NCBI GenBank assembly: GCA_963669175.1
Contig: OY769902.1
Location: 2,976,001 to 3,040,000, forward strand
Source: a bacterium
Lineage (GTDB): Bacteria > Electryoneota > Electryoneia > Electryoneales > Electryoneaceae
Direction of reading: 5' to 3'
Length of the DNA: 64,000 nt
Positions 444-62,770 of this stretch are shown piece after piece; the stretch's first letter is position 1, and every line of letters starts with the position of its first letter. Position numbers and translations under genes: made by a program. Under the pieces are notes generated by a model, which searched no databases, was not told the origin of the DNA, and was given only the letters and a program-made list of their open reading frames with translations.

Positions 444-3400
444 ATGATGAGAAGGTGTATTTCTGCGTTTGTGCTTGCCTTTTTACTTTCCTGCTATCTT
501 CATGCTGCGCCAGCGCCTGTTGACCAGCTTTCAGCACAGCAGGCATTACCCATGCAAGTAGAGCAGCATGTTCTTGCAGAAGATCATGTGCAGCTTGGAT
601 TGCGACTGGTCAATGATGGCTGGTATTCAGCAGGTAGTCTGGGTGAAGAAGTAGAAATGATAGCGTTTCCATTGGCTGGCGCTACCTCGGAAATTGGTAA
701 ACCAGCGGTGCCGGTTATGGGGCGTATGTTTCGTGTTCCCCCCAGAGCCGGGATTGTGATGGAAGTGCTTAGTGCCGAATACGAAACATATACCGATGTC
801 GAATACGCAACCTTCATGGGGTATGAACTGGATGAGCCCTTTGCGCCCTGTGATAATCCGGTTGACGAGTGGTATCCCGGCACGATCGCCCAGGTTGGTG
901 ATCCTGCCGTATTCCATGATTTCCGCGTATCAAACCTGGTGACCTACCCCGTACAGGTAAACACTGCACGTCGGGAAGTACGAGTTTATTCCAATATTGA
1001 AGTGGATATCCGTTATGAAGGTGTTGATGATAGAAACACAATCCCTAATTGGCCTACAGAGATCAGTGAAGCTTTCCTGCCTGCCTATCGTTTGTTGATG
1101 GACTGGGATGATGACGAATTGGATGAATATATCCTGTATCGTGGTCATGTGCAGGTGGTTATGCGTGATGACGATGTGTTGTGGGCTGCCCTAGGGGATT
1201 GGCTTGAGTGGAAACGTCAGCGAGGATGGGTGCTGGATTTCCTCACCGATGAAGATGTCCCTTCCTGGACCTCATACAATATCGACAATGAGCTGGAAGA
1301 CCGTTACGAGACTGCCAGTCCGAAGTTTGACTATGTTGCCATTATCGGTGACGAGTCCGGCTCCTTTTCGGTTCCCCCCGGTGTGGGAGGATATGGTGGA
1401 GGTGACCAGATCTATTCCGAGCTTGCAGGTGATGATATACTGGCAGATGTCGGCGTCGGACGAATCTCGGTAGAAAATGTACAGCAGTTAAACAACTATG
1501 TTGCCAAGATTTTTAACTATGAGCGCACACCTTACATGGAAGATACCGCCTGGTATCTGCGTGGAATGGTAAATCGTTCAGATGGTTGTTCCGGTGTAAG
1601 TAAGATCATGTCGCTCCGGTATTACCGTCATGCCTTGTTTGATTTGGGATACACGCAAGTTGATACATCTTTTGGCATTGGGAACTCAATTGCTATAACT
1701 CGTATCAATAATGGTGTCAGTTTCTATGGTGCGCGAGGGGTTCAGGGCACCGGCCTTCAGATCGGAAACATCAATAGCCTCAGTAATGACTACATGACCC
1801 CAGTTGTGATCGATGTGACCTGTGGAACCGGTAACTGGTGCAACGAAACCAGCATCAGTGAGGCCTATATGCGGGCAGGGACTGCGGCAGTGCCGACCGG
1901 TGGTATTTGCGGGATGTCTATGGCGACTTCTGCAACGCAACCGGATTTCAACAACTGCCTGACGGGTGGTTCCGGTTGGGCGATGCTGCAGCTTGGCATG
2001 CCTGCACTTGGTGACATGATTCTAATGGGCAAGGTCAACGGCTTTAACAACTACTACGGCAATAATACGTCTCAGCTTGAAGACTTCATGCAATGGTATA
2101 ACCTGATGGGAGATCCGACTGTGTATACCTGGGTCGGTATCCCGCAGGAATTGACGGTGGATGTGGTCGAAGAGCTTGAACTTGGCGAAAACCATATCAG
2201 CGTTGAGGTGGTCGATGAGTCTGGCCCGGTTGCTGATGCGCTGGTAACTTTCTACAAATACAGTAATGGCGAAGAGATTCAAGTTATCAATTTGACGGAT
2301 GAAGAAGGTTGTGTCACGCTTGATGCGCCCGTTCGTGAATCCGGTGAAGCGATGCTGACAGTCATCAAACGTCATTATGCCCCTGTTCAGGTTGAAATCG
2401 ACGTGAATGATCCGACCGCGCGAGTTGGGTGGGTTGAGGTCAGTTACGTTGATAATGGAGTCGGTGGCACGGATGGCGATGGTGACGGTGTTCCTGAAGC
2501 AGGGGAAACTGTCGGCCTGGAGATGACACTGAAAAACTATGGGACGAGCGCTGCTGCAAGTATTGAAGTCACGGCTGAGGAATCCGAAGAATGGATTACG
2601 GATTTGTCCGGAAGTATTGTTCTGGGCAGTCTCAATCCTGATGCCCAGTCGCAAGGTAATGGTATGATTATTGTCGAAATAGACCCGGAAGCTCAACAGG
2701 ATTTTATCCTTCACCTGGATCTTACGGTTTCGACATCCCAGGGGGATTATACGGACGGTTATTCTATCGTTGTGCAAGCGCCTTCGTATGCGTTTGTGAA
2801 CATGGATATGACCGGTGCATTCAATCCTGGAAATACACGTGAAGTTGAGATTGAAATCCGAAACATAGGTGGAGGTGATGCTGCAGCGTCGGAAGCCTGG
2901 TTGTTCAGCAACGATCCCTTTGTCAGAATAGAGCAAGGTGGTGATGATCTGGCAGCTATGGGAGTTGATCAGACAGCAACAGGAACATTTTCCATTCGGG
3001 CGCATGAGGATGCTATTCCGGGATATGTCGGCTGGTTCTACATGCAAGTCACAACCAGTGAAGGACAGGTTGACACGGTAGGAATTCCGGTTCAGATCGG
3101 AACAAAAAGCTCTACTGATCCCAATGGGCCTGATAACTATGGTTACTTCGCGTTTGATAATACAGACACGGGGTATCAGAATTTTGTGCCGTCCTATAAT
3201 TGGATTGAGATCAATCCTGAAGCCCAGAATACGGACTACCAGGGGGAATCGCTTGATCTTACCGATACCGCCGAAAACTATGATGTAGGTGTCACCATTG
3301 ACCTGCCTTTCGATGTGCAGTATTACGGTGAGGTTTTTGAAGAGATATCTGTATCTACCAATGGGTACGCTTCTTTCGGACGTAATGCAGATGTCTCGCT

Positions 3401-5492
3401 TGCACGAAACTGGACAATTCCCAGCCCGCTTGGACCGAACGATATGCTGGCCGTCTATTGGGACGAGTTGAGAACCGCTGCAGGAAGTGATATCCTCTAT
3501 TATTACGACGAGGATAATGGTCGCTTCATCATTGAATGGTACGATATGCGGCATCATTATTCGCAGTACAGTTGTACCTTTGAAGTGATTATCTACGATC
3601 AGGATGTCGTGCCAACGTGGTCTGGTGACAACGATATCCTGTTCCAGTATCATGATGTCCAGCATTCAACCGGTGGTATGCAGTACGATGTTCCCTTCTG
3701 GACAACAGGCATTGAAAACCACACCCAGGATGATGGAATCCTGATCTCCTACTGGAATCAGTATACAGCAGGATCAGCGACGATCGAGGATGAACGTGCG
3801 ATTCTGTTTACCACGAATATCCCCCTCATTGTAGGCTACATTGAAGGGACTATTACGGCGGCCGATCTGGAAACACCGATTGAGAATGCATGGATCGGTA
3901 CACCAAACCATCTTTTCGAAACCGTGACAGACGCCGATGGCCATTTCTTCATTGACAATGTCATGACCGGACCAGTCTCCTTCGATATTGAAGCAGATTG
4001 CTTTAACAGTCGGTACAACCTGGTGCTTACCGTTACAGAGAACGAAACCCTGCATGTCGATTTCCAGTTGAACCACCCGGAATTTATGGTGACACCACTC
4101 GCCGTTGGGGATACGCTGGAAGAGAATCAGGAATCGACACACTCTGTATGGGTACACAATCCCGGTAATGGTGTCATGAACTGGGAAGCGCATTTTGACT
4201 TCGAACCCGATGCTGAAGTAGCAGGTAATCCTGGCAAGGGAGCTGGTCAGGAGAAGTCAGCGCTGGATGAACTTGATGAACCATGGGACCAGGTTTACCA
4301 CTTTGATCTGGATGACAGTGAGGCCCTCTACCGGGGGATTGAGTTTGACGGAGTATTTTTCTGGTTGACCGGGTCGAACAACTATGATGTGACCGGTCCC
4401 AACCTGTTGTATAAATACACACGGGATGGTGATTACGTTGCCACCTATGATCAACCTGTTCCTGCGGCTGATCGTTCTTCCCAGGGTATGTTCGGGTTGG
4501 AATGGGATGGAGAATATATGTATGGTGCAGATAACGGTATCCTGTACCAGATGCAGTTTAATACGCAAGCGAATGAGTGGGAGGTTGTAAGTTCCTTTGA
4601 AATTCCGGCGAACCCTTCACGCTACATTGTGAAGAATCCTGAGACTGGTGAGTTCTTTATTGGTGACTACGGTATCGAGATCAGGGTTGTGCATCCTGAC
4701 AGTACCGGGACACTTCGCCAGATCGGGCAGGACTATGCACCACGTGGCGCTGCATGGTACCCGGAAGATCCGGACGGCTATAACCTGTATTTCATCGCTA
4801 TGAACAATGGTGATGATTACGGTCATATCATCAAAATGCATCCGCAAACGGGTGACACCATGAATGTCGCGCAGTTTGAGTACGATGGCGGCATTCCCAG
4901 TGGGGCGTGCATGAGTTATCTGTGGAATCCGCAGATCTGGATGTTTGCCAGTATGATGGACGCCGGTCAACAAGATTATGTACAGTTGTGGGAAGTGGAT
5001 CAATTCGACGCGTGGATTCACATTATGACCACAGAAGGGACGCTTGCGCCAGGTGATTCCCAGGAAGTCGAACTGCAACTGACACCGCAAAGCCTTCCGC
5101 CTGATGTCTATGATATTTACATACGTTTCGACCACGATGCCTGTATCGCTGAAGATAACTTTGTGCATGTGGTTCTTGAGGTGCTTGGAGGAGATGTTAA
5201 AGAAGATCCCGCAAGTGAAGCGCAACCGGTTGAGTGGGTGTTTGAGGGAGCCTATCCCAATCCGTTCAATCCTTCTACTACAGTCAGCTATTCACTGAAA
5301 CGGGCAACAGATGTACGGTTGAGCGTGTACAACCTGCTTGGTCAGGAAGTGGCGCGACTGGTGGATCAACCCATGCAGGCGGGCCAACACCGGTTGATTT
5401 TTGACGGGTCCAACCTGGCCAGCGGTATCTACTTCCTGCATCTGAACGCGGGACCGTTACAGGAGACACGCAAGATCATTCTGATGAAGTAA
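444..5492 (+). CDS. Gingipain-like (C25) multidomain secreted protein with T9SS-type C-terminal domain
   Basis: 1682 aa; signal peptide, C25 propeptide (GKPAVP, VTYPVQ), IIGD, VGRIS, VTCGTG, YNLMGDP, Ig-like domains, beta-propeller, YPNPFNP...KIILMK; RBS GGAGG. Confidence 0.85.
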   Translation: MMRRCISAFVLAFLLSCYLHAAPAPVDQLSAQQALPMQVEQHVLAEDHVQLGLRLVNDGWYSAGSLGEEVEMIAFPLAGATSEIGKPAVPVMGRMFRVPPRAGIVMEVLSAEYETYTDVEYATFMGYELDEPFAPCDNPVDEWYPGTIAQVGDPAVFHDFRVSNLVTYPVQVNTARREVRVYSNIEVDIRYEGVDDRNTIPNWPTEISEAFLPAYRLLMDWDDDELDEYILYRGHVQVVMRDDDVLWAALGDWLEWKRQRGWVLDFLTDEDVPSWTSYNIDNELEDRYETASPKFDYVAIIGDESGSFSVPPGVGGYGGGDQIYSELAGDDILADVGVGRISVENVQQLNNYVAKIFNYERTPYMEDTAWYLRGMVNRSDGCSGVSKIMSLRYYRHALFDLGYTQVDTSFGIGNSIAITRINNGVSFYGARGVQGTGLQIGNINSLSNDYMTPVVIDVTCGTGNWCNETSISEAYMRAGTAAVPTGGICGMSMATSATQPDFNNCLTGGSGWAMLQLGMPALGDMILMGKVNGFNNYYGNNTSQLEDFMQWYNLMGDPTVYTWVGIPQELTVDVVEELELGENHISVEVVDESGPVADALVTFYKYSNGEEIQVINLTDEEGCVTLDAPVRESGEAMLTVIKRHYAPVQVEIDVNDPTARVGWVEVSYVDNGVGGTDGDGDGVPEAGETVGLEMTLKNYGTSAAASIEVTAEESEEWITDLSGSIVLGSLNPDAQSQGNGMIIVEIDPEAQQDFILHLDLTVSTSQGDYTDGYSIVVQAPSYAFVNMDMTGAFNPGNTREVEIEIRNIGGGDAAASEAWLFSNDPFVRIEQGGDDLAAMGVDQTATGTFSIRAHEDAIPGYVGWFYMQVTTSEGQVDTVGIPVQIGTKSSTDPNGPDNYGYFAFDNTDTGYQNFVPSYNWIEINPEAQNTDYQGESLDLTDTAENYDVGVTIDLPFDVQYYGEVFEEISVSTNGYASFGRNADVSLARNWTIPSPLGPNDMLAVYWDELRTAAGSDILYYYDEDNGRFIIEWYDMRHHYSQYSCTFEVIIYDQDVVPTWSGDNDILFQYHDVQHSTGGMQYDVPFWTTGIENHTQDDGILISYWNQYTAGSATIEDERAILFTTNIPLIVGYIEGTITAADLETPIENAWIGTPNHLFETVTDADGHFFIDNVMTGPVSFDIEADCFNSRYNLVLTVTENETLHVDFQLNHPEFMVTPLAVGDTLEENQESTHSVWVHNPGNGVMNWEAHFDFEPDAEVAGNPGKGAGQEKSALDELDEPWDQVYHFDLDDSEALYRGIEFDGVFFWLTGSNNYDVTGPNLLYKYTRDGDYVATYDQPVPAADRSSQGMFGLEWDGEYMYGADNGILYQMQFNTQANEWEVVSSFEIPANPSRYIVKNPETGEFFIGDYGIEIRVVHPDSTGTLRQIGQDYAPRGAAWYPEDPDGYNLYFIAMNNGDDYGHIIKMHPQTGDTMNVAQFEYDGGIPSGACMSYLWNPQIWMFASMMDAGQQDYVQLWEVDQFDAWIHIMTTEGTLAPGDSQEVELQLTPQSLPPDVYDIYIRFDHDACIAEDNFVHVVLEVLGGDVKEDPASEAQPVEWVFEGAYPNPFNPSTTVSYSLKRATDVRLSVYNLLGQEVARLVDQPMQAGQHRLIFDGSNLASGIYFLHLNAGPLQETRKIILMK

Positions 5493-5531
5493 AGATAGCT
5501 TCAGGAGATATCCTGTATAAGATATAAACGT

Positions 5532-5567
5532 AACCGGGGACACACCACCAGGGTGTGTCCCCGGTTT
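5532..5567. terminator. Bidirectional intrinsic terminator
   Basis: AACCGGGGACACACC / GGTGTGTCCCCGGTT perfect stem between convergent genes. Confidence 0.75.
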
Positions 5568-5570
5568 CGT

Positions 5571-6624: not shown

Positions 6625-6637
6625 TCTGTGTTCCTTG

Positions 6638-13219: not shown

Positions 13220-13557
13220 CCTGGATACCTCGCTAGCGCCGGTTCAATGATTTCTGTCTGTTGAAAACGGTTCTCCACCTCATCGTCCAAAGAGAAATAT
13301 TCCAGTCAACAAGAAGTTTAGCTATGCGGATTTATCGTACATGTTAAATAGATCACATTATCAGTAGCAGAAAATTCACATGTAAGTAATTGATATGCAT
13401 GGTTATGGTTTGGGATATTTCGTGTTTATGGGGATGTCTCCCGGGAACTCCTGTATAAAGGTTGCGAACTTCTTACTTCACCAGTATCTTCCCGCCTCGA
13501 ACAGGGAAAAGGTTTCTCTGTTCGGTAACAAATTGGTGTAAATACCGGAGGTTTTCG

Positions 13558-15012
13558 ATGCGCGTAGTACAAGTTGTTTCTGTTGTATCCTTTTTAGTTG
13601 CACTTACCAGTAGTGTTATTGCCCAGGAGTGGACAGAGCATACATTGGGTGGCACTGAACCGAGGTACGTATATGCCGCTGATGTAGATGGCGATGGTGA
13701 CATGGATGTAGCATACGGGTCTCATACCCAACGTTCAATCAACTGGCTGGAGAATGTAGATGGCCAGGGTACTGAATGGGCAGACCACAAGCTGAATACA
13801 CAGTTTAACCTGCCGTATGTCACATCTATTGGTGTTTTTGACTATGATTCTGACGGTGATCAGGATATCTATTTCTCCCGTGACAGCACCTACAGCATCT
13901 TTGTTTACAGGAATGTTGGCGGTGAAGATTCTCTGAATTGGGAATACGCAGTCATCATGGGCTGGCCGGGCCAGTACATTCAGAACCTGACTCATTTTGA
14001 CATTGATGCCGACGGTGATCTGGATTTTGTCGCAGCAGTCAAGGGTGAAAACTATTTCCCGTGGTGGGAAAATGTGAACGGTGATGGTTCCGACTGGGAT
14101 GAATCAAACAGTATCCAGGGTGAGTTCGGTGGTGGTTATGATATCACTTTCGGCGACTACAACCTGGATGGCGCTATTGACGCTGCCGGTACCACTTATA
14201 GCCCTAGTGGCATGGCCTGGTTCTACCATGTCGGCGAATCTTCTTTCGCCGATCACCCGGTGGCAGATCTGGATAACGCTTTCGGAATCGATACCGGCGA
14301 CTTCAATGGCGATGGCCGTCCCGATCTCGTCGTCAGCACACGTGGTACGGATGGCAAAGTGCTCTGGTATGAAAACCAGCCTTCCGGTGACTATAACTAC
14401 CTGGCCTGGACAACCCATGAGGTCTTTAACCTGTCCGAGCATGCCGACTACACTTTCTTTGATGTCGTGACCCTCGACTATGACTTGGATGGCGATCCAG
14501 ATGTGGCTAGTGTGGACATCGACGGTTTCCTGCGTCTTCACGAGAACGAACTGGGCAACGGCACAAGTTGGCCCTCAGGCCATATTGCCGCCGGGTATGT
14601 CAACATGCGTGATATCCAGGTCGTGGATATGAACGGTGATGGCGCTCCTGATCTCTTGACCGCTGGCGAGTTCAACGGCATCAACTGGTACGAGAACCCC
14701 TACGAAAACACGGTTGAAGAAGACGACAACACAGAAACCGCCTTGCCGGAATCGATGCACCTGGTGTCGGTCTATCCGAACCCGTTCAACCCGACCGCCA
14801 CGGTAACCGTGAACGTCGCGCAAGCCGGCAAGCTGACCCTGACTGTCTACAACCAGCTCGGCCAGCAGGTCCAGCAGGTCGTGGACACGGTCGTCCAGCC
14901 CGGCATCCAGCAGTTCACCATCGACGGCCATAACCTGGCGACCGGTGTCTACCTGCTCCGTGCCAATATCAACGGCCAGATCAGCGAGCAGAATATTGTG
15001 CTGATGAAGTAA
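13558..15012 (+). CDS. FG-GAP/VCBS repeat beta-propeller protein with T9SS-type CTD
   Basis: Repeated DxDGDGDxD motifs, signal peptide from ATG 13558 (RBS GGAGG), YPNPFNP CTD. Confidence 0.88.
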   Translation: MRVVQVVSVVSFLVALTSSVIAQEWTEHTLGGTEPRYVYAADVDGDGDMDVAYGSHTQRSINWLENVDGQGTEWADHKLNTQFNLPYVTSIGVFDYDSDGDQDIYFSRDSTYSIFVYRNVGGEDSLNWEYAVIMGWPGQYIQNLTHFDIDADGDLDFVAAVKGENYFPWWENVNGDGSDWDESNSIQGEFGGGYDITFGDYNLDGAIDAAGTTYSPSGMAWFYHVGESSFADHPVADLDNAFGIDTGDFNGDGRPDLVVSTRGTDGKVLWYENQPSGDYNYLAWTTHEVFNLSEHADYTFFDVVTLDYDLDGDPDVASVDIDGFLRLHENELGNGTSWPSGHIAAGYVNMRDIQVVDMNGDGAPDLLTAGEFNGINWYENPYENTVEEDDNTETALPESMHLVSVYPNPFNPTATVTVNVAQAGKLTLTVYNQLGQQVQQVVDTVVQPGIQQFTIDGHNLATGVYLLRANINGQISEQNIVLMK

Positions 15013-23031: not shown

Positions 23032-23226
23032 AAGCATGTGAAGAGCCCTTTCTTCATTGTTCAGTTACTATTTCGCTTCTGTGGAAGTTTTAAGAATGCC
23101 TCTGTCACTCTTGACATTATGAAAATGTATTGTCATTTTAAAACTGTTGCATAATTCATACAATTCTTTTACGTGTCCCCATGCACTTTAAAAGAAGTAT
23201 TAAGAGAACTCTGCACAGGCGTAAAG

Positions 23227-25464
23227 ATGAAGACATATGCCTTCAATTCAGGCCATACAATCTGGGAACGATCCTTTTGCCTCTTCGTATGCCTTTTCGC
23301 TTACCTGCACTCTGCACTACCTGCTGATGCACAAAACCACTGGTTACCTGAACATCCCTTCCCTGCTGCGAACGATTTTACCGGATCTTGGGTTTTCGAG
23401 AACAATGATGTCTTGTTGACCGGAGGCGCCGGGATTATCTGTTACTATACAGCATCAACTGATTCATGGGAATACCACTGGTTGAGTGACAATGAAGCTG
23501 TGGATCACCTGAAAAAGATCCAGATGCTTGATGATCAGACTGGTTATGCCATTGGATTCAGAGATTGGGATTTTGCCATTTTGTACCGAACCGATGACCG
23601 GGGCATAACTTGGACGAATGTCACGAATTGTCCACTAGATAACGTTTTAGATCTGTTTTTTACATCAGTGGATAGTGGTTTTACAACAGGCGCATATACC
23701 GTATTTCGAACCTTGGATGGTAGTGAGACCTGGACGACAGTTTTTACAGATTCTACTGTAGGCATCATTGATATATATTTTATGGATGATGAGTATGGTT
23801 GGTTGGCCAGTCTTATGCAACACACGATTTACCAAACGATTAACTATGGTGAATCGTGGACTATGCTGGAAAGGCCGATTCAGCAACTACAGCCGGAGCA
23901 TGTGCGTTTTTTCACTCGTGACAGGGGAATAATTCAAGGTCTATTTGCCAACCTGCAGACAAATGATGGTGGAGAGACATGGGACTACCTTGAATTCGAT
24001 GAAAATTATTTCATGTTAGACGAACTGGTGGTAGCCAGTGATACTTTCGTTTTTGGTGCGACTTCTTACAATTATTACCTGAGATCTTTCGATAATGGGC
24101 AAAGTTGGGAATTTATTAATGACTATTACACGAATTTTGATGATCGGCATACGCAAACGCTACATTCTAATTCAAGTGGGAAAGTAGTACTTGCCGGCGA
24201 GGGTGGCTATCGCTGTTATAGTGATGATTTCGGTACGCACTTTCAACCCGATAGCGGATTGACAAAACAGTATCTAGAAGTATTCGAAATCCAGGATACT
24301 GGTCGTCTATGGATTTCTGGTGGTTATGACGTTGTTTTGACCCGAACTTTGGATGAATCAGAGTGGGAAATATATGAAGGCCTATCGGAAAGAGAAGGGT
24401 TATGGATTTATGATATTTCATTTAGAAACGAGTATGAAGGGTGGATTTGCGCTAACACCTCTTCTCTGCTTAGGACAACAGATAGTGGCGAAAATTGGGA
24501 AAATGTAAATATCGGCTTAGAGGAGAATGATCATCCCCTGGAGGTGATTTTCAGGAATGACCAGAATTACATGGCAATCTCAACTTCAGGGTATATCGTT
24601 GAATCTACTAACGCTGGCGAATCTTGGTCAATTATCAATGAAACGGCTCCAAGTAGCGGATTTCAGAAGCCCAATGAGTACGTTGATAGCCAAAATCTTT
24701 GGATGGGACGCGATAATTTATATTTCAGCAATGATGGGGGATATTCTTGGGACCTCAAATATACATGTGAAGAAGGCTATCAAGTTTATGATATCTGCTT
24801 CCTTACTCCACAAACAGGCTATATTGTTGTAAGTCACCGGATGCATAACGGCGAGGAATGGTGTGGTTCATCCTATATTCTTAAGACAATTGATGGAGGA
24901 GATACGTGGAGATGCAACCACTATGGAGATCTTGGGAGTCCAATATATAGCATCGATTTTTATGATGAAGCTCATGGTATGGCAGTTGGCGGGGATGGAC
25001 ACAGCTATACGACAAATGATGGAGGATATTCCTGGATATATCAAAACACTGGAACCAGTAATATATTAAAGAAAGTAACCTGTCTTGATAGTGTTACCTA
25101 TTTCGCTATTGGAAATAATGGGACCATTTATAAATATGAATACGACTATGATTGTTATGTAGATACTGAAACATCTAGACAGCTACCAGATGAGTTGTCC
25201 ATTTCAGCTTATCCTAATCCCTTCAATCATAGTGTTAATATATCCTTCTACTTAAAAAATGATGCAAATTTTTATGTTAATATATATAATATAAATGGGC
25301 AGTTGATATACTCAGGTAGCTATGGACATGTGAATAAGGGGAAAAATACATATAGATGGGATGGAAGAAATAATAATGGTGATATGGTTAGTTCAGGGGT
25401 GTACATTATTTGTGCTATGACAGATGATTGCAGTATATATAGAAAAATAATGTTGATAAAATGA
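23227..25464 (+). CDS. YCF48/BNR-repeat beta-propeller protein with T9SS/FlgD-type CTD; low GC
   Basis: Repeated (T/S)xDGGxxW Asp-boxes, YPNPFN...WDGRNNNG...SSGVY; start uncertain (23173 or 23227). Confidence 0.82.
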   Translation: MKTYAFNSGHTIWERSFCLFVCLFAYLHSALPADAQNHWLPEHPFPAANDFTGSWVFENNDVLLTGGAGIICYYTASTDSWEYHWLSDNEAVDHLKKIQMLDDQTGYAIGFRDWDFAILYRTDDRGITWTNVTNCPLDNVLDLFFTSVDSGFTTGAYTVFRTLDGSETWTTVFTDSTVGIIDIYFMDDEYGWLASLMQHTIYQTINYGESWTMLERPIQQLQPEHVRFFTRDRGIIQGLFANLQTNDGGETWDYLEFDENYFMLDELVVASDTFVFGATSYNYYLRSFDNGQSWEFINDYYTNFDDRHTQTLHSNSSGKVVLAGEGGYRCYSDDFGTHFQPDSGLTKQYLEVFEIQDTGRLWISGGYDVVLTRTLDESEWEIYEGLSEREGLWIYDISFRNEYEGWICANTSSLLRTTDSGENWENVNIGLEENDHPLEVIFRNDQNYMAISTSGYIVESTNAGESWSIINETAPSSGFQKPNEYVDSQNLWMGRDNLYFSNDGGYSWDLKYTCEEGYQVYDICFLTPQTGYIVVSHRMHNGEEWCGSSYILKTIDGGDTWRCNHYGDLGSPIYSIDFYDEAHGMAVGGDGHSYTTNDGGYSWIYQNTGTSNILKKVTCLDSVTYFAIGNNGTIYKYEYDYDCYVDTETSRQLPDELSISAYPNPFNHSVNISFYLKNDANFYVNIYNINGQLIYSGSYGHVNKGKNTYRWDGRNNNGDMVSSGVYIICAMTDDCSIYRKIMLIK

Positions 25465-53450: not shown

Positions 53451-54085
53451 AGGTGTTTTTGGTTGTTTGGTTAGCGGAAAATGTTCTCGAAAGAATAGCA
53501 CGACCAGCTAGTATAATAAAGCTGAGAATTCTCTTCGCCAATAACGGTAAACAAAGTAAGCCCTGAATGGCTTATCTCCGAGAGCCTGTCAGAAGTTCGA
53601 GAGAATCCGTATACTTCAAGTTCTGATGAGAAAGAGTAAAAGGGCATCGCATATAAATCAGGTCTTGACTCAGCGTGTTTTTTGCATGCAGTTTAAAGTG
53701 TTTCGGTGATTTTGAAAACTGGGAAGATGTTATGAATTCTCAGTTTCCGGCTAGAGTACTGCTTTCTTCGATTCTTCTTCCAGCCACATCGTTGCATGGT
53801 AATCCACGGTATGTTCTTGAAGCTGAAGAAGCTCTTCTGCCTCAGAAAATACTGATTGCCGAGCAACGGCTCCGTTAAGTTTTTGCTTTTTGTGATTTTA
53901 CAGATACCTGATAGGTTCAGATTTTCAAACCGAAAACAGTTGCAAAAGCAACAGGGAGGTTACGAAAACCCAATTTTGTTGTTATCGTTGGAAGGGGTGA
54001 GACAAGTTGGCAGATCTTGGTGGGGATTTGCCTTTAGTAGTTTGCTAACGCTTACGGTTTCACTACAGGAGTGAGAGGAGTAAGA

Positions 54086-57000
54086 ATGCAAAGGTACTGT
54101 GCGTTGTTTGTCATCGTCCTTCTTCTTGTGTCTGCAGGTTTTGTCATGGCGCAGGAGGGGACGAATTCAAACATCGATGATCGTGGAGAAGTGATACCGA
54201 GCTGGGTACCAAATCTTGGTCAGCCAGTTCAGTCACGCTTTAGCGAGCTTGACGAGGTGTCAATCGCCTTTGTCCGGGATGCTGTGAACGGATGGGGCAA
54301 CATTGCCACGATTCTCGATACGATGGCAGAACTAACCTACGACGTCATTACATCTGCAGATCTGGCGACTGCCGATTTGTCTGAGTATGTAGCGATTGTC
54401 GTGGATGGAAACCAGTCTGGCACATTCTACACGAACATCAATGCCAACATGGATGTGTTGGAAGAGTTCGTGGATGATGGTGGCTGGCTGGAGTTTCATG
54501 GTGCTAACAACTCACACAACCCTTATTGGGAATTGTGGGATGGTACCACCTACATTTATTCGCTTAACTCGACAACCAACTACATTCAGGATGATGAGCA
54601 CCCGATTGTAGAAGGTGAAGCAAACCCGGAAGGTAATAGCTGTAACCACGGCTATTTGACGGATTATCCTGATGATGCGAACATCATTGTGTCGCAGGAT
54701 GAAGCTGGCGTCAACGCCACCCTGATCGAGTATGCATATGGATCAGGTAATGTTGTTGTTACCACCATGACTTATGCACATATGTGGAACAACAACTACG
54801 CTGGCGCCTACCTTGCCGGCAACACGCTTACCTACGTAGTCTATCACCCCATCTGGGGCGCTCTGATGGGCACGGTCACCGATACGGGCGATGATCCTAT
54901 CGACGGCGCGGAGATCAACGTCTACGATGAGAATGATGAATTTGTAGCTACCACGACCTCAGATGAAAACGGTGACTACGAAATCATTGAAACGCTTTTT
55001 GAAGGCACGTACTACGTAACAGCTTTCGCACCCGGATATGTCCTGGCTACAGAAACCGATGTGGCGATCGTGTCTGAAGATACGACGACGGTTGATTTCA
55101 GCCTGGCTGCAAACGAAGAAACTGTTACGATTTCCGGTACTGTCATTTCGGCTGATACACCTGACACACCCATTGCCGGGATCACTGTGTATATCCCGCT
55201 GCTGGATGTTTCAGATGTAACCGATGAAAACGGTGATTTCGACCTTGGAACACAGTTCACGGGCACCTATACATTTGTGATCAGCAATGATCCTGAAGGA
55301 TCAGAAGTCTATCACACAATGTCCTTCGCCGGTGTTGAAGTTGATGATGACGCGGTCCCCCTTTCATTCTCGGTGTATGAAATTCTGCCTCCGCAGAATC
55401 TCGCCGGCGCATCTGAAAACGGATCTGTCACTTTGTCCTGGGATCCTCCGGCAAATATGGAGCAGGATGAAATGATGGCTGCAGCCCTGGAACAGGAAAT
55501 CGGCTGGCTGGCCGAAACCATCGAGCTGATTGAAGCCCGGGGTACACAGCAGGAACGCGCTAAACTGCCTCTGATCGAGCAGGAAATGTATCAGAAGCAG
55601 TCCATCCTGAATTCTATCGAACGCCGTCGTGAACAGATGGAAAACGGTGAAGAGCTGGATGAAATTACCGATTTCCTGGGTTATCGTATCAAGATGACCT
55701 ATCCCAACGGCCTCGAAAGCCTCTTGGATGATTACGTCACAGCCACAACGCATACCGTTGGCAACCTGCAAAACGGTAACCTGTACAACTTCATGGTTGC
55801 TGCTGATTACGGATATGGCGAAGACTACCTTGTCTGGTCCAACGAAATCAACATTCGTCCGCTTCCAACCACGGGTTACGTTGTTTCTGTAGTTGATTAC
55901 GACTGGATCGAAATCAACCCGGCTAACGGTGGTGACGGTGAGGTTGCCATTAACGCAGGTGATGATAGCAACTCTGGTGAAATTTCCTTTGCTCCGCTCT
56001 CATTTGAGTACTGGGGTAACGATTATGACAGCTTTGGCGCTTGCACCAATGGTTGGTTCAGTTTCACAAACTTTACCAGTGGTTCGATCACAGTAGACTT
56101 GCCGAATACGGCTTTACCGAACGCAGTATTGCAAGCTCTCAACGGTGACTTCCATGCTGGCGTGGCTGATGACGACATGGCCATCTGGTACTTGGTCGAT
56201 GATGAAGAAGACTTGGTCGTGGTCCAGTACCTACTCCGTCCGTTAGGTAACACCGAATACCGTTACTCTTACCAGATTGTTCTGGATTGTGCGAATGGTT
56301 CCATCCAATTCAACTACGAAGAAGCAGATGACTGGCCCTACTACCATCGCGGTCCGACAGGCATAGAAAACGTGGATGGCACCGAAGCCTACATCTGGGA
56401 CTACACACTCATTGAAGATGAGTATTCCATTTTCTTCCAGGCTCCAGACTGGGATTGGGGTTCCATCAGCGGCATGGTATACGATGATGTGACGCTTGAT
56501 CCCCTTGAAGGCGTTACAGTTGTTGCAACTGACTCAGAAGACATGACCTGGACATCCGAGACGGATGAAAATGGTTGGTTCACTGTGCTGGTCAACGCTG
56601 AAGACGGTCCCTGGGATCTGTCACTGAACATCCCTGGCTGGTACGAATCGACAGTAACCAACGTAACTATTCCGGTAGACAGCTTTGGTGTACAGATTGA
56701 TGATGTCTACATGGAAGGTGTGCCGATTGGTTATTATGACGATTTCGAAGATGATCAGGGCCCATGGGAAACCAGTCTCAACAACATTCCCGATGACTGG
56801 GATTGGGGAACCCCGACTTCCGGTCCAGACGAAGCGCATTCCGGTGTAAATCTCTGGGCTCAGAACCTTTCCGGCAACCACCATGGCGCGCCATCATACG
56901 GTGCAACACGTGGTGATACACTTTGGTCAACGCAAGAGTGGTATGTTGGTTCTGAAGATGCCGTGCTTACATACTGGCACTGGCATGACTACTATATTTC

Positions 57001-60000
57001 AGGCACTACATTCTACAACGGTTACAATGTCCAGATTTCTACCGATGGCGGTATGAACTGGGATATCATTACACCTATTGGTAACTACGATGGTTCATGT
57101 AACTACATGGGTGAAACCGGGTATCCGCTTGCTGAAGCTATTTTCGGTGGAACAACCGATGGTTGGGAACAAGTAGCTTTTGAACTGGGCGATTACTTCG
57201 GCGAAGATATCATGCTGATGTTCCACGCTGCCGGATACTACTATACCGGGTACCAACGTGCTGGTGTCTACATTGATGACGTGCGCCTGCATGGTGTCCC
57301 GGTACCGAGCCGCATTGAAGGTTACGTCACAGATTCAGGTGATGAATCCGTAATTGCAGGCGCGGATGTCAACCTGTGGTATGATGGTGAAGTTGTTGGT
57401 CATGGTGTCACTGATGAAAACGGTTTCTACAGCATCAACGAAGTAGTGCCTTCGCTCTATCGTCAAAACGACTACGAGCTTGAAGCGTTTGCCGCGTTCT
57501 ACATGGCAGACACGCTTCATGCTTACGATGTAACGGAAGGTGATACCCTCGTTGCCGATTTCGAACTTGATGAAGAAACACGTACTTCGAATATCTTCGG
57601 TTCAGTATTCTCCGAGGATACACCTGACACGCCGGTGGAAGGCGCCCTGGTTACGATCCCGCAGTTGGGACTGACAGAAACAACCGATGCCGACGGCGAA
57701 TTTGATTTTGGCGCCCAGATTATCGGTATCTATACGCTAGTCGTTCATTTCGATACGCCGCAAACATTCCACGAAACCCATTTCTACAACCAGCAGATTA
57801 CAGTAGACAACGAGTCTATCGACTTGTTGATTCCGGAAATTATGCCGCCTGCTACTTTCAGTGCGGATGATAGCGATATGGCTATCGTTCTGACCTGGAC
57901 GGATCCGGCAAACACACCGGAAGAAGATCTGATGCAGCTTCGTGTCGATATCGAAGCCTTCCGTGCCTCGATCAACGAACTGCGCAGCACTGGTGATCCC
58001 AGGGCTCTGGCGAAGTTGCCGGAAGAAGAGCAGCGCCTGTTCAGCATGGAAAACCGTCTCGCGCGTCTCGAGCAGCTTGCAGAACTGGAAATTGATGATA
58101 TCGAAGACTTCCAGGGCTACAGGATCTATCTTGATGGTGAAATCCTGGATACACTGCTTTATCCGTGGATTCATACTTACACCATTAATGGCCTTTCAAA
58201 CGGTCATGAGTACCATGTCAGTGTAGCCGCGGATTACGGGTATGATGAAGACTACCTCGTCTGGGCAACCGACGAAGAAGGCGAAATCACCGGAATCCGT
58301 CCGCTGCCGCCGGCTGGATACGTTTTCAACCCGATGGAGTATGAGTGGATTGAACTTGATCCCGATGAAGGTGGTGACGGTGAAGTCGCACACGACAATG
58401 GTGACGATGCGAACAGCGGTGAAGTCTCATTCGCGCCGCTTGAGTTCGATTTCTACGGAACAACTTATTCCAGCTTCGGCGCTTGCACCAACGGCTGGAT
58501 GAGTTTCACCGACTTCACGAGTGGAACCATTGGACCAGCGTTGCCATCCACTTCCGCACCGAACGCAACCGTGATCGCCCTTAACGGCGACTACCATGCA
58601 GGCGTTTCCGGTGACGATTGCAACATCTGGTACCTGGTTGACGAAGCGAATGATCGTGTTGTCATCCAGTTCCGTCTGCGTCCCTATGGTGGTTCACACA
58701 CGGATTACCGTCACAATTACCAGGTCGTCCTGGATTGTGAAACCAACGCCATGCACTTCAACTACAACACATCTGAAGACTGGATGGAATATGTACGTCA
58801 GAACGGTGTTGTAGGCGTTGAAAACGAAACCGGTATGGCCGCATCCACATTCAACATGGAATCCATCGTTGATGAGATGTCTCTTTCAGTCCGGTACGTA
58901 GAAGCATTCGGTAACGTAATCGGGACAATTACCGATGCCAATGAAGATCCTATTGCAGGCGCATATGTATTCCTGCAGGAAGATCGGTCCGCATACGGTA
59001 TCTCTGACGAAAACGGTTTCTACGAAATTCTGCTGGCCAACACTGAAAACGCACCGTACACCGTTGTCTGCGAAGCCGATGGTTATGTGCGTGAAACTGT
59101 TCAGGATGTTGACTGGGAGAACGGTGAATTTGATCAGGAAGTAGACTTCCAGTTGGATGTGATCAGTGATCAGACACCGCCTTACTTCGTGAGCTGGGAT
59201 GTAGACTACGACGACCGCCTGAGCTTCGTGCTTGGTGAGCCTGGCGCCTACCAGCACATGATGACCATGCAGTATGATGATGGCACCGCTGCTGATGCGT
59301 GGGTTATCCCGGCCAATGGTGAGAATGCCATGTGGGCGGTTCCGTTCGAAGCATCAACAGAAGCCCGCATTGTTCAGGCTGAAATTCGTGTCACCATACC
59401 GAACAGCGCCTGGGGTAACTGGCCGGATGCACAGTCTGATCCAGTGATCGTAAAGATCTTTGCTGATGACAATGGCCAGCCGGGTGAAGTACTGTACACC
59501 TCACCGGCAACTGTTGCTCAGCACGGTTCTGTAGTGATTAATCCTTCGCTTGAGATCGAAGGCAGGTTCTGGGTTGGCTTCTATGCCCAGAGTGGTCTTG
59601 AAGCGCTTTGCGTTGACACCTATGCCAACAATGGCGACCTGGTCAGCATGACCCTCGATGGTGAGAACTGGCAGCAGTTTGAAGTCAATGGTGATCCGAT
59701 GATCCGCATTGATCTGCATTCCGCCAGCTCCATCGAAATGGTTGACATTGACGATCTTAACTTGCCGGAAGCTACTTTCGACAAGGGCGCAGCCGTACCG
59801 GTTGCTGCAACACATCAATCCCCGGTTTACGGCGTTCTCGCGCCAATGTATTCACCCAAGGCTTCGTTGCGTGAAGGCTGGAATCGTGACCTGCGCAGTG
59901 AACTGGATGAATTCCTTGGCTTCAACATCTACTACTCAACAGACGGTGAAGATTTCGAATTGGCGAACGAAGATCTGATCGAAGATACAGAATACGATCT

Positions 60001-62770
60001 GATCCTTGGTTCCGACATGGAAAATGTACCGATCTGGGTTTATGCTACGGCATGGGTCGAATCTGATGGTGAAGAGTTTAACTCAGATCCTTCAGACACG
60101 CTGCTGTTAGCATTCAACATGCCGCCGGATGCTCCGGCTGATGTCGTTGTTGAAGGTGTGAACCACATCTTCCGCACTGCGACTGTTTCCTGGGATGCAC
60201 CGACAACCAACGCTGATGGTACTCCGCTGGTAGACCTTGAAGGTTACCGGGTCGATGCGAACTATGAACTGTACGATAGCACGGATGTTGCAGGCATTGA
60301 TGTACAGATGCTGGAATCCGGGTATTATACTTTCGATGTTTACGCCTTCGACGAAGTACCAAATCAGTCCAATGCTGGTTCTTCTCCAAGCACACGGATT
60401 GGTGACCCGCCATTCTGGTCAAGCTTCGAAGATGACAACGACGATCCGAACCCGTTTGAGGGTGACGGCACTGTCTGGGCGCATGGCGAACCGACTGCCG
60501 GTCCGGGTGAAGCCTATGAAGGCGACATGGTCTGGGCGACCTACCTGGATGGCAACTACAACAACAACGAAGATGCATTCCTGACCTGTACACATGGTTG
60601 GGAACCGATTGATCAGGTTGTCCTGTTAGGCTACTACCACTGGACCAACTTTGAAACCGGATGGGATGGTTACAACCTCCAGGTTTCGACTGACAACGGC
60701 GCTTCGTGGGAAGTCGTGACCCCGATTGGTGGGTATAACGATACCTCAGTCAACGGTCTGGACAACGAAGCTGGCTTTACTGGCAGTTCAAACGAATGGC
60801 AGTATATCCAGTACGACCTGTCAGAGTATGCCGATGCGGACTCGATCCATATCCGCTTCCGCTATGGTTCTGACAGTTCCGGTAACAGCTACTATGGTGT
60901 AGCCATTGACAACATGGAGATCTGGGGCGTTCCGAGTGAGGCGCGTTGCAGCATCGAAGGGTATGTCTGGGATGCAGCCGATGACCCGATGAACGGTGTC
61001 ATGGTGTATCTGGAAGAATTCCCGCAGTACTACACCTATACTGGTGAAGATGGATATTACTTCCTCTTCAACGTACCTGCTGACACGATGGAAACCAGTA
61101 CGATTATTGCAGAATATCCGTACTATTGGCCGAGCATGGCTGATACCATCCTGGTTCCCGATGATACCATGACGGTAGACTTCACACAGGGAACCGGTCG
61201 TGCCTTGCTTTATCCTGATGGAAACATCAGCAACTCTTCTGTTGAATTGCTGGTTGACCTGAACGCAGAGGTTGGTGATTCCACAGGCAGTGTGGACATT
61301 GATCTTGAAAGTGATGGTACCGGTCCGCTGCAGTGGTACTCTTATGTCTGGGTCGTTGACAACGCTACCACAAGTGGTGACGTGAAGTTTGACGGCAAGG
61401 CAACAACTGCAGGTCCGGAAAAAGCCCGCAATGGTCGTATGATGCGGAAAACCAGTGATGCACAGCAGTCTGGTCCGACATTGAAGCTGAATGACGACGA
61501 TATGGGTCCGGTCGTTCCGAACGAACTTGACGAGCGTTGGGACTGGCTGATGACTCTCGACGTAGGCTCAGCTACCATGAATGCCGGCTGTGTTGGTCCG
61601 CTGGTTACATCTGAAGGTATCTTCGTCACAGCGGTTTACCTGAACGAAGAATACGGCGACAACTACTTCTACCAGTTCGATTTGAACGGCAACCCGATTG
61701 CCGCGCGTGAATACCCGGCCGACATCATCGGTGAGGGTGGCACAATCGGTCCGGTCGACGTTGCGTGGGATCCTGTTGATCAGTGGGTCTATGGCGCCAA
61801 CGAAAATGGTGATGTCTGGAAGTTCAAGACCGACATGAGCGAGTATGAATGGGTGCATAACCTTGGATTCTGGCCGACCGGTCTTGCTTACGACTTCAAC
61901 GAAAACTACCTGTACGCAATTCAGGGCAATGTCGGCATGGCCGTTGTTGACCTGAGCAACGGCGCACAGGGCGCCTTCGCGCTGGATGAAGAAGTTGGTC
62001 CGTCACTGGGTATTGCTTACAACCCGCTTGATCTGGATGACATGACGATTTACGTACTGTCACAGAACGGTGATGGTGAAGGTGGTTACCTGCATCGTTT
62101 CGACCCAGTCAACCTCGTCTGGGATACCTACTACCAGACCATTTACGAAGCTGACGCCGGTTCCTCTGGTGGTATAGAAATCAGCCTCGGTTACCACAAT
62201 GCCCGCTACGATATGGTCACCCTGCTGCAGTCTGAAACCGATATCGTTGACATCTGGGAAGGCCAGGTTGCCCCGTTGGATTGGCTCTGGATCACCCCGG
62301 ATGAAGGCAGCATCGAGCCGCAGGAGATGGAAACCGTTACTGTGCATGCTGACATCAGCAGCAAGGCAGAATTCCAGGATGTAGAAGTCGGTGATGAAAT
62401 TGCCGCTGAACTGGTATTCTCCGGTCCGTACTGGGCCAACCCGCCTGTTATTGACCTGGCCGTCATCTTCATCGATGGTTTGGCCGAGGATGCCGCTGAG
62501 ATGCCGACCAAGTACGCGTTGCACCAGAACTATCCGAACCCGTTCAACCCGCAGACCCAGATCAAGTTTGACCTGGTCAATCCGCAGAAGGTCAGGTTGA
62601 CGGTGTACAACGTGATGGGTCAGGAAGTAATGCGCCTGGTCGATCAGCCGCTGCAGGCTGGTTTCCACAGCGTAACCTTCGACGCCACCAACCTCGCCAG
62701 CGGTATGTACTTCTACCGCATCGAAGCTGGTAACTTCACTTCCATGAAGAAGATGGTCATGGTGAAGTAA
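54086..62770 (+). CDS. Giant (~2890 aa) secreted multidomain adhesin-like protein with T9SS-type CTD
   Basis: Signal peptide; repeated carboxypeptidase-regulatory-like, FnIII and jelly-roll modules; beta-propeller; QNYPNPFNP...KMVMVK. Confidence 0.88.
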   Translation: MQRYCALFVIVLLLVSAGFVMAQEGTNSNIDDRGEVIPSWVPNLGQPVQSRFSELDEVSIAFVRDAVNGWGNIATILDTMAELTYDVITSADLATADLSEYVAIVVDGNQSGTFYTNINANMDVLEEFVDDGGWLEFHGANNSHNPYWELWDGTTYIYSLNSTTNYIQDDEHPIVEGEANPEGNSCNHGYLTDYPDDANIIVSQDEAGVNATLIEYAYGSGNVVVTTMTYAHMWNNNYAGAYLAGNTLTYVVYHPIWGALMGTVTDTGDDPIDGAEINVYDENDEFVATTTSDENGDYEIIETLFEGTYYVTAFAPGYVLATETDVAIVSEDTTTVDFSLAANEETVTISGTVISADTPDTPIAGITVYIPLLDVSDVTDENGDFDLGTQFTGTYTFVISNDPEGSEVYHTMSFAGVEVDDDAVPLSFSVYEILPPQNLAGASENGSVTLSWDPPANMEQDEMMAAALEQEIGWLAETIELIEARGTQQERAKLPLIEQEMYQKQSILNSIERRREQMENGEELDEITDFLGYRIKMTYPNGLESLLDDYVTATTHTVGNLQNGNLYNFMVAADYGYGEDYLVWSNEINIRPLPTTGYVVSVVDYDWIEINPANGGDGEVAINAGDDSNSGEISFAPLSFEYWGNDYDSFGACTNGWFSFTNFTSGSITVDLPNTALPNAVLQALNGDFHAGVADDDMAIWYLVDDEEDLVVVQYLLRPLGNTEYRYSYQIVLDCANGSIQFNYEEADDWPYYHRGPTGIENVDGTEAYIWDYTLIEDEYSIFFQAPDWDWGSISGMVYDDVTLDPLEGVTVVATDSEDMTWTSETDENGWFTVLVNAEDGPWDLSLNIPGWYESTVTNVTIPVDSFGVQIDDVYMEGVPIGYYDDFEDDQGPWETSLNNIPDDWDWGTPTSGPDEAHSGVNLWAQNLSGNHHGAPSYGATRGDTLWSTQEWYVGSEDAVLTYWHWHDYYISGTTFYNGYNVQISTDGGMNWDIITPIGNYDGSCNYMGETGYPLAEAIFGGTTDGWEQVAFELGDYFGEDIMLMFHAAGYYYTGYQRAGVYIDDVRLHGVPVPSRIEGYVTDSGDESVIAGADVNLWYDGEVVGHGVTDENGFYSINEVVPSLYRQNDYELEAFAAFYMADTLHAYDVTEGDTLVADFELDEETRTSNIFGSVFSEDTPDTPVEGALVTIPQLGLTETTDADGEFDFGAQIIGIYTLVVHFDTPQTFHETHFYNQQITVDNESIDLLIPEIMPPATFSADDSDMAIVLTWTDPANTPEEDLMQLRVDIEAFRASINELRSTGDPRALAKLPEEEQRLFSMENRLARLEQLAELEIDDIEDFQGYRIYLDGEILDTLLYPWIHTYTINGLSNGHEYHVSVAADYGYDEDYLVWATDEEGEITGIRPLPPAGYVFNPMEYEWIELDPDEGGDGEVAHDNGDDANSGEVSFAPLEFDFYGTTYSSFGACTNGWMSFTDFTSGTIGPALPSTSAPNATVIALNGDYHAGVSGDDCNIWYLVDEANDRVVIQFRLRPYGGSHTDYRHNYQVVLDCETNAMHFNYNTSEDWMEYVRQNGVVGVENETGMAASTFNMESIVDEMSLSVRYVEAFGNVIGTITDANEDPIAGAYVFLQEDRSAYGISDENGFYEILLANTENAPYTVVCEADGYVRETVQDVDWENGEFDQEVDFQLDVISDQTPPYFVSWDVDYDDRLSFVLGEPGAYQHMMTMQYDDGTAADAWVIPANGENAMWAVPFEASTEARIVQAEIRVTIPNSAWGNWPDAQSDPVIVKIFADDNGQPGEVLYTSPATVAQHGSVVINPSLEIEGRFWVGFYAQSGLEALCVDTYANNGDLVSMTLDGENWQQFEVNGDPMIRIDLHSASSIEMVDIDDLNLPEATFDKGAAVPVAATHQSPVYGVLAPMYSPKASLREGWNRDLRSELDEFLGFNIYYSTDGEDFELANEDLIEDTEYDLILGSDMENVPIWVYATAWVESDGEEFNSDPSDTLLLAFNMPPDAPADVVVEGVNHIFRTATVSWDAPTTNADGTPLVDLEGYRVDANYELYDSTDVAGIDVQMLESGYYTFDVYAFDEVPNQSNAGSSPSTRIGDPPFWSSFEDDNDDPNPFEGDGTVWAHGEPTAGPGEAYEGDMVWATYLDGNYNNNEDAFLTCTHGWEPIDQVVLLGYYHWTNFETGWDGYNLQVSTDNGASWEVVTPIGGYNDTSVNGLDNEAGFTGSSNEWQYIQYDLSEYADADSIHIRFRYGSDSSGNSYYGVAIDNMEIWGVPSEARCSIEGYVWDAADDPMNGVMVYLEEFPQYYTYTGEDGYYFLFNVPADTMETSTIIAEYPYYWPSMADTILVPDDTMTVDFTQGTGRALLYPDGNISNSSVELLVDLNAEVGDSTGSVDIDLESDGTGPLQWYSYVWVVDNATTSGDVKFDGKATTAGPEKARNGRMMRKTSDAQQSGPTLKLNDDDMGPVVPNELDERWDWLMTLDVGSATMNAGCVGPLVTSEGIFVTAVYLNEEYGDNYFYQFDLNGNPIAAREYPADIIGEGGTIGPVDVAWDPVDQWVYGANENGDVWKFKTDMSEYEWVHNLGFWPTGLAYDFNENYLYAIQGNVGMAVVDLSNGAQGAFALDEEVGPSLGIAYNPLDLDDMTIYVLSQNGDGEGGYLHRFDPVNLVWDTYYQTIYEADAGSSGGIEISLGYHNARYDMVTLLQSETDIVDIWEGQVAPLDWLWITPDEGSIEPQEMETVTVHADISSKAEFQDVEVGDEIAAELVFSGPYWANPPVIDLAVIFIDGLAEDAAEMPTKYALHQNYPNPFNPQTQIKFDLVNPQKVRLTVYNVMGQEVMRLVDQPLQAGFHSVTFDATNLASGMYFYRIEAGNFTSMKKMVMVK

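Follow-up and report, generated by a model that had tools for sequence, protein, structure and literature searches.

The maturation of type IX secretion system (T9SS) cargo by residue-specific proteases is known essentially from Porphyromonas gingivalis, where the code is Arg/Lys. According to PMC4357240, the gingipain RgpB has a 229-residue prodomain and is autoprocessed at Arg126 and Arg229, with Arg126 sitting in the S1 pocket, salt-bridged to Asp163. A precedent of another kind is SUB1 of Plasmodium, a subtilase that cuts itself at LVSAD/NIDIS before processing a number of secreted proteins at sites that share a consensus (PMC3378952). Here we analyse a 64,000-nucleotide window (contig OY769902.1, positions 2,976,001 to 3,040,000, assembly GCA_963669175.1) from a member of the Electryoneaceae (phylum Electryoneota), in which two T9SS cargo proteins, the C25-like P0001 and the giant P0002, repeatedly carry the four-residue word Glu-Leu-Asp-Glu (ELDE). 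Of known systems, gingipain processing in P. gingivalis comes closest. We find that ELDE is real, specific to T9SS cargo and placed at junctions, standing at the border between a folded module and the propeptide, linker or loop insert before it. We put at about even the chance that it is a lineage-restricted short linear motif of type IX cargo acting as a shared endoproteolytic maturation site, read by subtilases that have Arg at the position of Gly166 of subtilisin BPN'.

P0001 (1682 amino acids (aa); 444..5492) and P0002 (2899 aa; 54071..62770) are both encoded on the + strand, as are all of their features given below. P0001, assigned from Pfam, AlphaFold2 (AF2) modelling and Foldseek, contains a gingipain-type prodomain, a C25 domain without its catalytic His, CARDB and CarboxypepD_reg modules, a propeller-like module and a type A C-terminal sorting domain (CTD; 5253..5480; PF18962, E 6.1e-11; TIGR04183). 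P0002 is built of seven CarboxypepD_reg stretches, Fn3 and MAM-like modules, a propeller-like module and a CTD (62531..62758; PF18962, E 1.5e-13; TIGR04183). The C-terminal Por_Secre_tail domain marks both proteins as type IX cargo, and N-terminal hydrophobic, signal-like segments can be read in both.

In P0001, the first ELDE copy (aa 128–131, 825..836) lies in a loop that aligns with the inhibitory loop of RgpB (Arg126), the second (aa 225–228, 1116..1127) at the prodomain/catalytic junction equivalent to Arg229, and the third (aa 1276–1279, 4269..4280) at the end of a G/K/Q-rich linker, followed by an x-W-D propeller-like module. In P0002, ELDE precedes the N-terminal domain (aa 59–62, 54245..54256), ends an Fn3 helical insert just before F-x-G-Y-R-I (aa 528–531, 55652..55663), separates two CarboxypepD_reg-type modules (aa 1165–1168, 57563..57574), precedes an Fn3-like F-L-G-F-N-I-Y module (aa 1944–1947, 59900..59911) and precedes a propeller-like module (aa 2485–2488, 61523..61534), this last copy being homologous to that at aa 1276 of P0001. 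The copy at aa 1165 has a singleton context and may be a coincidence. The position homologous to the aa 528 copy reads EIDD (aa 1340–1343, 58088..58099). The inventory of the original prediction, which was made from the sequence of the window and listed three exact copies in the C25 protein, five in the giant protein and the EIDD at 58088, is thus correct to the nucleotide. Exposure of the five P0002 sites was judged from sequence context only. Two stretches of P0002, 55478–55651 (aa 470–527) and 57923–58087 (aa 1285–1339), are helical, coiled-coil-like Fn3 inserts of about 55 residues, placed between the first strand and the F-x-G-Y-R-I strand and ending in ELDE or EIDD.

Chance is excluded as the source of the window copies. 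From amino acid composition, 0.047 copies are expected in P0001 and 0.114 in P0002, against the three and five observed (Poisson P 1.6e-5 and 1.5e-7, respectively), and none of 20,000 shuffles of P0001 or of P0002 matched the observed count. For the genome-wide count we used the genome that holds the window (G000), a single contig of 5.45 Mb, on which a crude calling procedure of our own, longest open reading frames (ORFs) first, gave 4014 ORFs; a likewise crude CTD profile of our own, iterated from P0001 and P0002, found 336 CTD ORFs. In these, ELDE occurs 158 times against 7.9 expected from composition, compared to 61 against 31.9 in non-CTD ORFs, a 1.9-fold excess that is the same with or without an N-terminal hydrophobic segment. 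The other 11 orderings of E, E, L and D occur 5–36 times each in CTD ORFs, and once the CTD's own motifs are set aside ELDE is their commonest 4-mer. At least one copy is present in 86 of the 336. The enrichment in CTD-bearing over other proteins that the original prediction had anticipated is therefore borne out, and it survives correction for acidic composition, which is ruled out as its cause by the expected counts and the shuffles.

The core of the word is strict: D, N, G or S mostly stands before it and L, F, Y or I mostly after it, with little other conservation. The underlying 12-mers vary, and codon usage at ELDE is identical between CTD and non-CTD ORFs, which places the signal at the protein level. 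The earlier remark that varying codons argue against a DNA repeat holds accordingly, and both a DNA-level repeat and a recombination joint were rejected on the same two observations. The cargo set itself is unusually large for a 5.4-Mb genome, the 336 type A CTD ORFs accounting for about 21% of all ORF residues. Within the window, two of the four CTD-bearing ORFs carry ELDE. The other two, at 13462–15012 (516 aa) and 23173–25464 (763 aa), have no [ED]LD[ED] word at all, so ELDE is not a general property of cargo.

With tandem copies merged, the sequences that follow the 150 ELDE sites of the CTD ORFs sort into 39 classes unrelated to one another, 17 of them families and 22 singletons, and a single repeated domain therefore cannot explain the excess. 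The eight window copies fall into seven of these classes and are not fully independent, since P0001 aa 1276 and P0002 aa 2485 share the propeller-like class (16 sites). P0002 aa 528 and the EIDD at aa 1340 belong to one class with four ELDE sites, whose members read ELDE (4), ELDD (2), EIDD (1), ELDA (1) and ELDS (1); the classes of P0001 aa 128, P0002 aa 1944 and P0002 aa 59 contain 7, 7 and 4 sites, respectively. Measured against random positions in these proteins, polarity is higher over the 15 residues upstream (0.60 versus 0.563, z 4) and hydrophobicity over the 15 downstream (0.414 versus 0.344, z 8.4). Of the 158 sites, 38 lie within the first 100 aa. Zymogen junctions carrying ELDE span three protease families: C25, at both RgpB-equivalent sites; subtilases (S8), at or near the pro/mature junction in 4 of 16; and C1-like peptidases, with three cases assigned by motif only. 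Tandem forms, ELDELDELDE or ELDELDE, are found outside the window in ORFs o718, o3989, o1595, o3331, o2823 and o1781 of G000; such slippage suggests that the stretches concerned are unstructured and tolerate changes in copy number.

The resemblance of P0001 to a gingipain extends over the prodomain and the C25 domain. Pfam recognises the catalytic domain (PF01364, E 3.9e-29) and the prodomain (PF08126, Propeptide_C25, E 8.3e-12), and phmmer matches the solved gingipains 1cvr and 4ief. An AF2 model of residues 1–620, built from 45 aligned sequences, has a mean predicted local distance difference test score (pLDDT) of 89.3, and with it Foldseek retrieves 1cvr (E 8.7e-23, TMt 0.73) and the RgpB prodomain 4ief (TMt 0.75–0.79), so that P0001 belongs to C25 by both fold and sequence. 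The original prediction had likened the two N-terminal ELDE copies to RgpB cleavage sites at about 126 and 229. The published sites are Arg126 and Arg229 (PMC4357240), and the propeptide alignment agrees: copy 1 aligns with R-A-E-N of the RgpB prodomain, which by our own count on 4ief_A is the inhibitory-loop Arg126, while copy 2 stands 7–8 residues before the first catalytic-domain strand, like Arg229.

The catalytic machinery is a different matter. Arg431-Gly432-Val433 (1734..1742) stands where gingipains have x-Gly-His (G-H-G), and the catalytic His (RgpB His211) is missing; the catalytic Cys (RgpB Cys244) is still present as Cys460 (1821..1823), with D-V-T-C aligned to D-V-A-C. Alignment of the His-less with the canonical C25 clade by hhalign (probability 99.9) likewise puts His462 on Val433 and the catalytic Cys on Cys460. 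The His is absent from 20 of the 22 C25-like ORFs of G000 (P0001 and 19 paralogues) and from about 100 of 113 database homologues. Across 104 of these homologues the catalytic domain has no conserved His at all, the Cys being kept in 90% and Arg431 in 89%. This His-less subfamily reads R-G-[YFWV] in place of G-H-G, and its members come, by their source names, from several candidate phyla of the Fibrobacterota–Chlorobiota–Bacteroidota (FCB) type. Given the loss of the His, P0001 and its 19 paralogues are unlikely to be the cutter by the gingipain mechanism. P0001 has the C25 fold yet lacks the defining feature of the peptidase, and we do not file it as an active C25 peptidase. The C25 or caspase-like, Asp-specific cutter of the original prediction is not supported here, its His/Cys dyad being broken in P0001 as in most C25-like ORFs of the genome. 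P0001 and P0002 are most likely substrates.

The S1 pocket of P0001 is altered as well. Lys387 (1602..1604) aligns by phmmer with Asp163 of RgpB, so that the acidic S1 residue of the gingipain is replaced by a basic one, and the layout of P0001 is suggestive of the RgpB Arg126–Asp163 pair with its charges reversed. Among 74 close homologues, a loop word L-[DN]-[EDH] is present in 13 of the 23 with Lys or Arg at the Asp163 column versus 6 of the 51 others, a co-occurrence that is suggestive only because these homologues are related. The close homologues of P0001 (P0003–P0075) share the junction word W-[DN]-x-x-E-L-D-[EDQ]-[YF], and the E-L-D-x-x-W-D word of aa 1276 is part of the family consensus; copy 1 is mostly limited to paralogues within G000. 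The best named homologues, at about 50% identity, carry the name Candidatus Electryonea clarkiae. A related-locus search of the genome contigs with P0001 as the query found no relatives.

The most likely cutters are two co-secreted subtilases encoded outside the window, o1553 (G000:C1:2117820-2120939) and o918 (G000:C1:1294034-1297171), both bacillopeptidase-F-like T9SS proteins that combine PF00082 (E 2.4e-51 and 9.8e-51, respectively) with a CTD. In three CTD-bearing S8 ORFs, these two and o1844, ELDE lies exactly at the propeptide/mature boundary. Alignment of o1553 with subtilisin BPN' matches V-I-D-G-G, H-G-T-H, A-A-G-N and G-T-S-M-A-S-P and shows an intact Asp/His/Ser triad with the oxyanion Asn. 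An Arg of o1553 aligns with BPN' Gly166 at the base of S1 and is followed by a long insert in the loop. In the BPN' variants of Wells et al. in 1987, a basic residue at 166 is reported to favour Glu at P1. PMC3378952 places Gly166 at the floor of the S1 pocket and describes how a changed charge at this residue shifts the preference for P1, the cited example being Gly166Asp, which prefers P1 Lys.

To follow this position across relatives, 30 of 57 matching loci were fetched, which makes the per-genome counts taken from these loci lower bounds. Arg at 166 and ELDE at the junction co-vary in this sample: the junction reads ELDE in 16 of 16 Arg-166 subtilases with an aligned junction, and among 13 members with Ser, Tyr, Asn or Ala at 166 it reads ELDE in 3, ELD[SQ] in 3, ETDE in 1 and something else in 6. 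The wider family has 2640 database members at E<=1e-20. Among the best 120 of these 2640, Arg occupies the 166 column in 92. The column that holds the final E of ELDE is Glu in 84 of these 92, and in 80 the next residue is Ile; the three residues ahead of the junction Glu vary freely (VTRE, GTEE etc.). The mature part has a conserved start, I-[TA]-W, right after the junction Glu. On the simplest reading of this Arg–Glu co-variation, the Arg-166 subtilases would be a large natural Glu-P1 clade that self-processes after the junction Glu, and in the present lineage the three residues before that Glu would have become fixed as E-L-D. The hydrophobic residue that follows ELDE genome-wide fits a cut after the last Glu, and the register is probably E-L-D-E / hydrophobic.

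The distribution of the word across the phylum was followed in 79 genomes by counting the DNA pattern GARCTNGAYGAR against its reversed form, a rough control. A strong excess is found in 5 of the 79. Within family f1 (16 genomes), pattern and control counts are 215 and 32 in G000, 166 and 66 in G001, 150 and 28 in G003, 99 and 16 in G009, 84 and 32 in G006, 41 and 20 in G007, and 75 and 39 in G011; the other nine f1 genomes have ratios of 0.6–1.3, and each of the 63 genomes outside f1 has at most 51 pattern matches. Homologues of P0002 keep an N-terminal [SN]ELDE in G001, G003, G005, G007 and G011, and the Fn3 insert end x-L-D-[ED]-[IL]-x-D-F-x-G-Y is kept in every f1 genus seen. From these patterns, ELDE seems to be old in family f1 and to have spread later through the cargo of a few genera.

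Three other accounts of ELDE have to be weighed against reading by Arg-166 subtilases. The nearest to the original prediction is a clan CD C25 peptidase retuned to an acidic P1 and cutting E-L-D / E, for which the only plausible enzyme is not P0001 but o2413 (G000:C1:3259808-3263752, outside the window), a canonical C25 protein that keeps G-H and Q-G-C and carries ELDE at its own junction. In its AF2 model this ELDE lies in low-confidence coil (pLDDT <50 at residues 222–224), and 17 of 18 family members retain Asp at that column of the junction, the outgroups, which read x-T-D-x, included. Orthologues with 49–70% identity occur in G001, G003, G006, G007, G009 (two copies) and G010 and were not found at E<=1e-20 in G002, G004, G005, G008, G011 and G012, so that their presence tracks the pattern excess with the exception of G010. 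Set against this, homologues at about 40% identity are present in G015, G016, G019 and G020, all without ELDE excess, and the S1 pocket gives no clear support: the profile alignment with 1cvr is ambiguous, with Asp/Glu or a neighbouring Lys at the Asp163 column, phmmer matched the prodomain only, and the catalytic domain is modelled at pLDDT 43–65. We know of no C25 enzyme with an acidic P1, and none turned up in the literature searched. With the catalytic His lost in nearly all C25-like ORFs of the genome, the only other canonical C25 protein is the PorU-like o719, and we judge cutting by a retuned C25 peptidase unlikely.

A caspase-like CTD-bearing enzyme was also considered and rejected, as no canonical one was found. 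The clan CD search of G000 gave no C13 and no C11 ORF and two C14 ORFs, both without CTD or ELDE; an NCBIfam scan returned CTD and weak PorU-like matches and nothing further. The C14 ORFs, o369 (G000:C1:543928-545922) and o1931 (2647344-2650688), have N-terminal hydrophobic segments, and one is fused to a C-terminus that by eye resembles a sulfatase-modifying factor, the other to WD40-like repeats.

ELDE might instead be a binding tag, an exposed acidic tetrapeptide read by a receptor such as the His-less C25 paralogues, by which cargo would be assembled or retained on the cell surface. Both the peptide cleft and the Cys are preserved in the 20 His-less proteins, some of which also have a basic residue at the S1 column; the subfamily is large and conserved; the acidic loop goes with Lys/Arg at the Asp163 column, as described above; and ELDE sites in internal loops are easier to reconcile with binding than with cutting. 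Within f1, genomes with a greater ELDE excess also have more C25 matches, but this correlation is partly circular because the paralogues carry two or three ELDE copies each. The basic residue is present in only 23 of the 74 close homologues, and the occurrence of ELDE at S8, C25 and C1-like zymogen junctions is what a cutting site predicts. We therefore regard a tag for binding as quite unlikely.

The remaining account needs no trans-acting reader. ELDE could be a structural element that caps a strand or helix, or binds a metal, where a module begins, and that is inherited in expanded paralogous families. A G-G-P-D-x-x-G-Y module has ELD[EDN]-x-GGPD in 11 of its 13 copies, and E-L-D or L-D-E words are kept beyond the ELDE-rich genomes at the C25 junction, at aa 1276, at the Fn3 insert end of P0002 and in its N-terminal domain; the helix predicted at the P0001 junction and the acidic neighbourhood of the largest class, both described below, point the same way. 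However, this account would have to place one tetrapeptide before 39 unrelated classes, the 22 singletons included, and confine it to T9SS cargo; a cap intrinsic to a fold is not expected to be lineage- and pathway-specific, as the strong excess in so few genomes is, and the tandem slippage indicates an unstructured setting. A purely structural origin thus appears improbable.

Maturation by Arg-166 subtilases at ELDE faces several difficulties of its own. In the largest downstream class (27 sites) ELDE closes a loop insert within an Fn3-like repeat and does not stand between domains; this class also shows D-L-D-E and E-L-D-D, with an acidic neighbourhood D-L-D-E-L-P-D-D. Junction placement, as originally proposed for most window copies, does not extend to this class of internal loops. 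Where homologous sites deviate from ELDE, the Asp changes least and the last residue most, which suits a cut after Asp, as by o2413, better than one after Glu. Copy 1 of P0001 lies in coil in the AF2 model (125–132, block pLDDT 79 versus 94–95 in the two preceding blocks), while the junction copy is a one-turn helix (225–228, block pLDDT 80) and not a disordered linker. The P0001 junction and aa 1276 words are kept in homologues that their sources name as other organisms, e.g. Candidatus Electryonea clarkiae, and are thus older than the genome-wide spread of ELDE; since several copies sit in such family-conserved E-L-D or L-D-E words, also in relatives without the genome-wide excess, they could have a structural role. 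The subtilase ELDE is itself aligned by phmmer onto the region of BPN' residues 1–3, with its Asp on Gln2, which we take to be a calcium-site ligand, and could belong to the mature N-terminus. Arg-166 subtilases with an ELDE junction occur at least once each in G005, G008, G010 and G011, and G005 and G008 have no excess of the DNA pattern. As related genomes are not independent, correlations of distribution identify no enzyme. Finally, while the statistics of the motif, its places at junctions, the lost His, the Arg at column 166 and the co-variation of that Arg with ELDE and with Glu are observed, we infer that a cut occurs, which bond it breaks and which enzyme makes it.

On balance we favour the Arg-166 subtilases. 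Cargo would be exported via the T9SS, whereupon these subtilases would free themselves at ELDE and then, perhaps with o2413, trim other cargo at the same word, removing N-terminal pro-pieces, separating modules and nicking loop inserts, with the His-less C25 paralogues among the substrates. The original prediction of cutting at ELD/E in place of Arg/Lys would survive in so far as the motif is real, T9SS-specific and present at RgpB-equivalent positions, but the favoured register lies after the last Glu. A more far-reaching version, in which the code E-L-D-E / hydrophobic has arisen convergently in more than 80 type IX cargo proteins of a single uncultured FCB lineage and is read by natural Glu-specific Arg-S1 subtilases, the 20 His-less gingipain homologues being regulated substrates or non-catalytic readers, is one that we hold tentatively and consider somewhat improbable.

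Compared to the gingipain system, P0001 shares with RgpB the T9SS CTD route, the prodomain and catalytic fold, and the two marked sites in the inhibitory loop and at the prodomain junction, and the two systems share a single residue-specific code across many cargo proteins. Unlike RgpB, P0001 marks these sites with the acidic ELDE and not with Arg/Lys, has Lys and not Asp at the S1 column and lacks the catalytic His, and the likely cutter comes from another protease family. For that candidate enzyme the nearest functional precedent is Plasmodium SUB1, likewise an S8 enzyme whose own junction shows its specificity, with a polar or acidic P1, an acidic prime side and one protease serving a set of exported proteins. 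SUB1 has Ser at the Gly166 position and a hydrophobic P4 (PMC3378952), whereas the Electryoneota enzymes have Arg at the 166 column and a hydrophobic residue after the E-L-D-E of their junction; the two have nothing in common in secretion route, organism or substrates. In BPN' variants engineered at Gly166/Glu156 for charged P1 residues, the same position at the bottom of S1 sets P1 by charge complementarity; here the Arg is natural, as seen in most of the best 120 homologues. With caspases the system shares a strict four-residue acidic word, but the clan CD fold is found here in the substrates and the favoured register ends in Glu.

In the literature searched we found no report of the ELDE word in T9SS cargo or of His-less gingipain homologues. 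In its accessible text, the Electryoneota paper PMC9324843 does not mention gingipain, C25, T9SS or type IX, although its supplementary tables may list such peptidases, and it notes many S8 peptidases with signal peptides in the phylum. This work adds the finding that the C25 paralogues have lost the His, the reversal of charges in the zymogen layout, a pair of candidate enzymes, a probable register and the distribution over the phylum.

If the favoured reading is correct, an uncultured FCB lineage would have arrived anew at the maturation logic of P. gingivalis, using an acidic word of four residues, and ELDE would be specific enough to forecast where the mature chains end in roughly a quarter of its exported proteins. 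Attention would then also turn to the His-less gingipain homologues as a widespread family, and to the 2640 database relatives as a large clade of natural acid-P1 subtilases that seems not to have been studied and would be of practical interest as a source of sequence-specific proteases.

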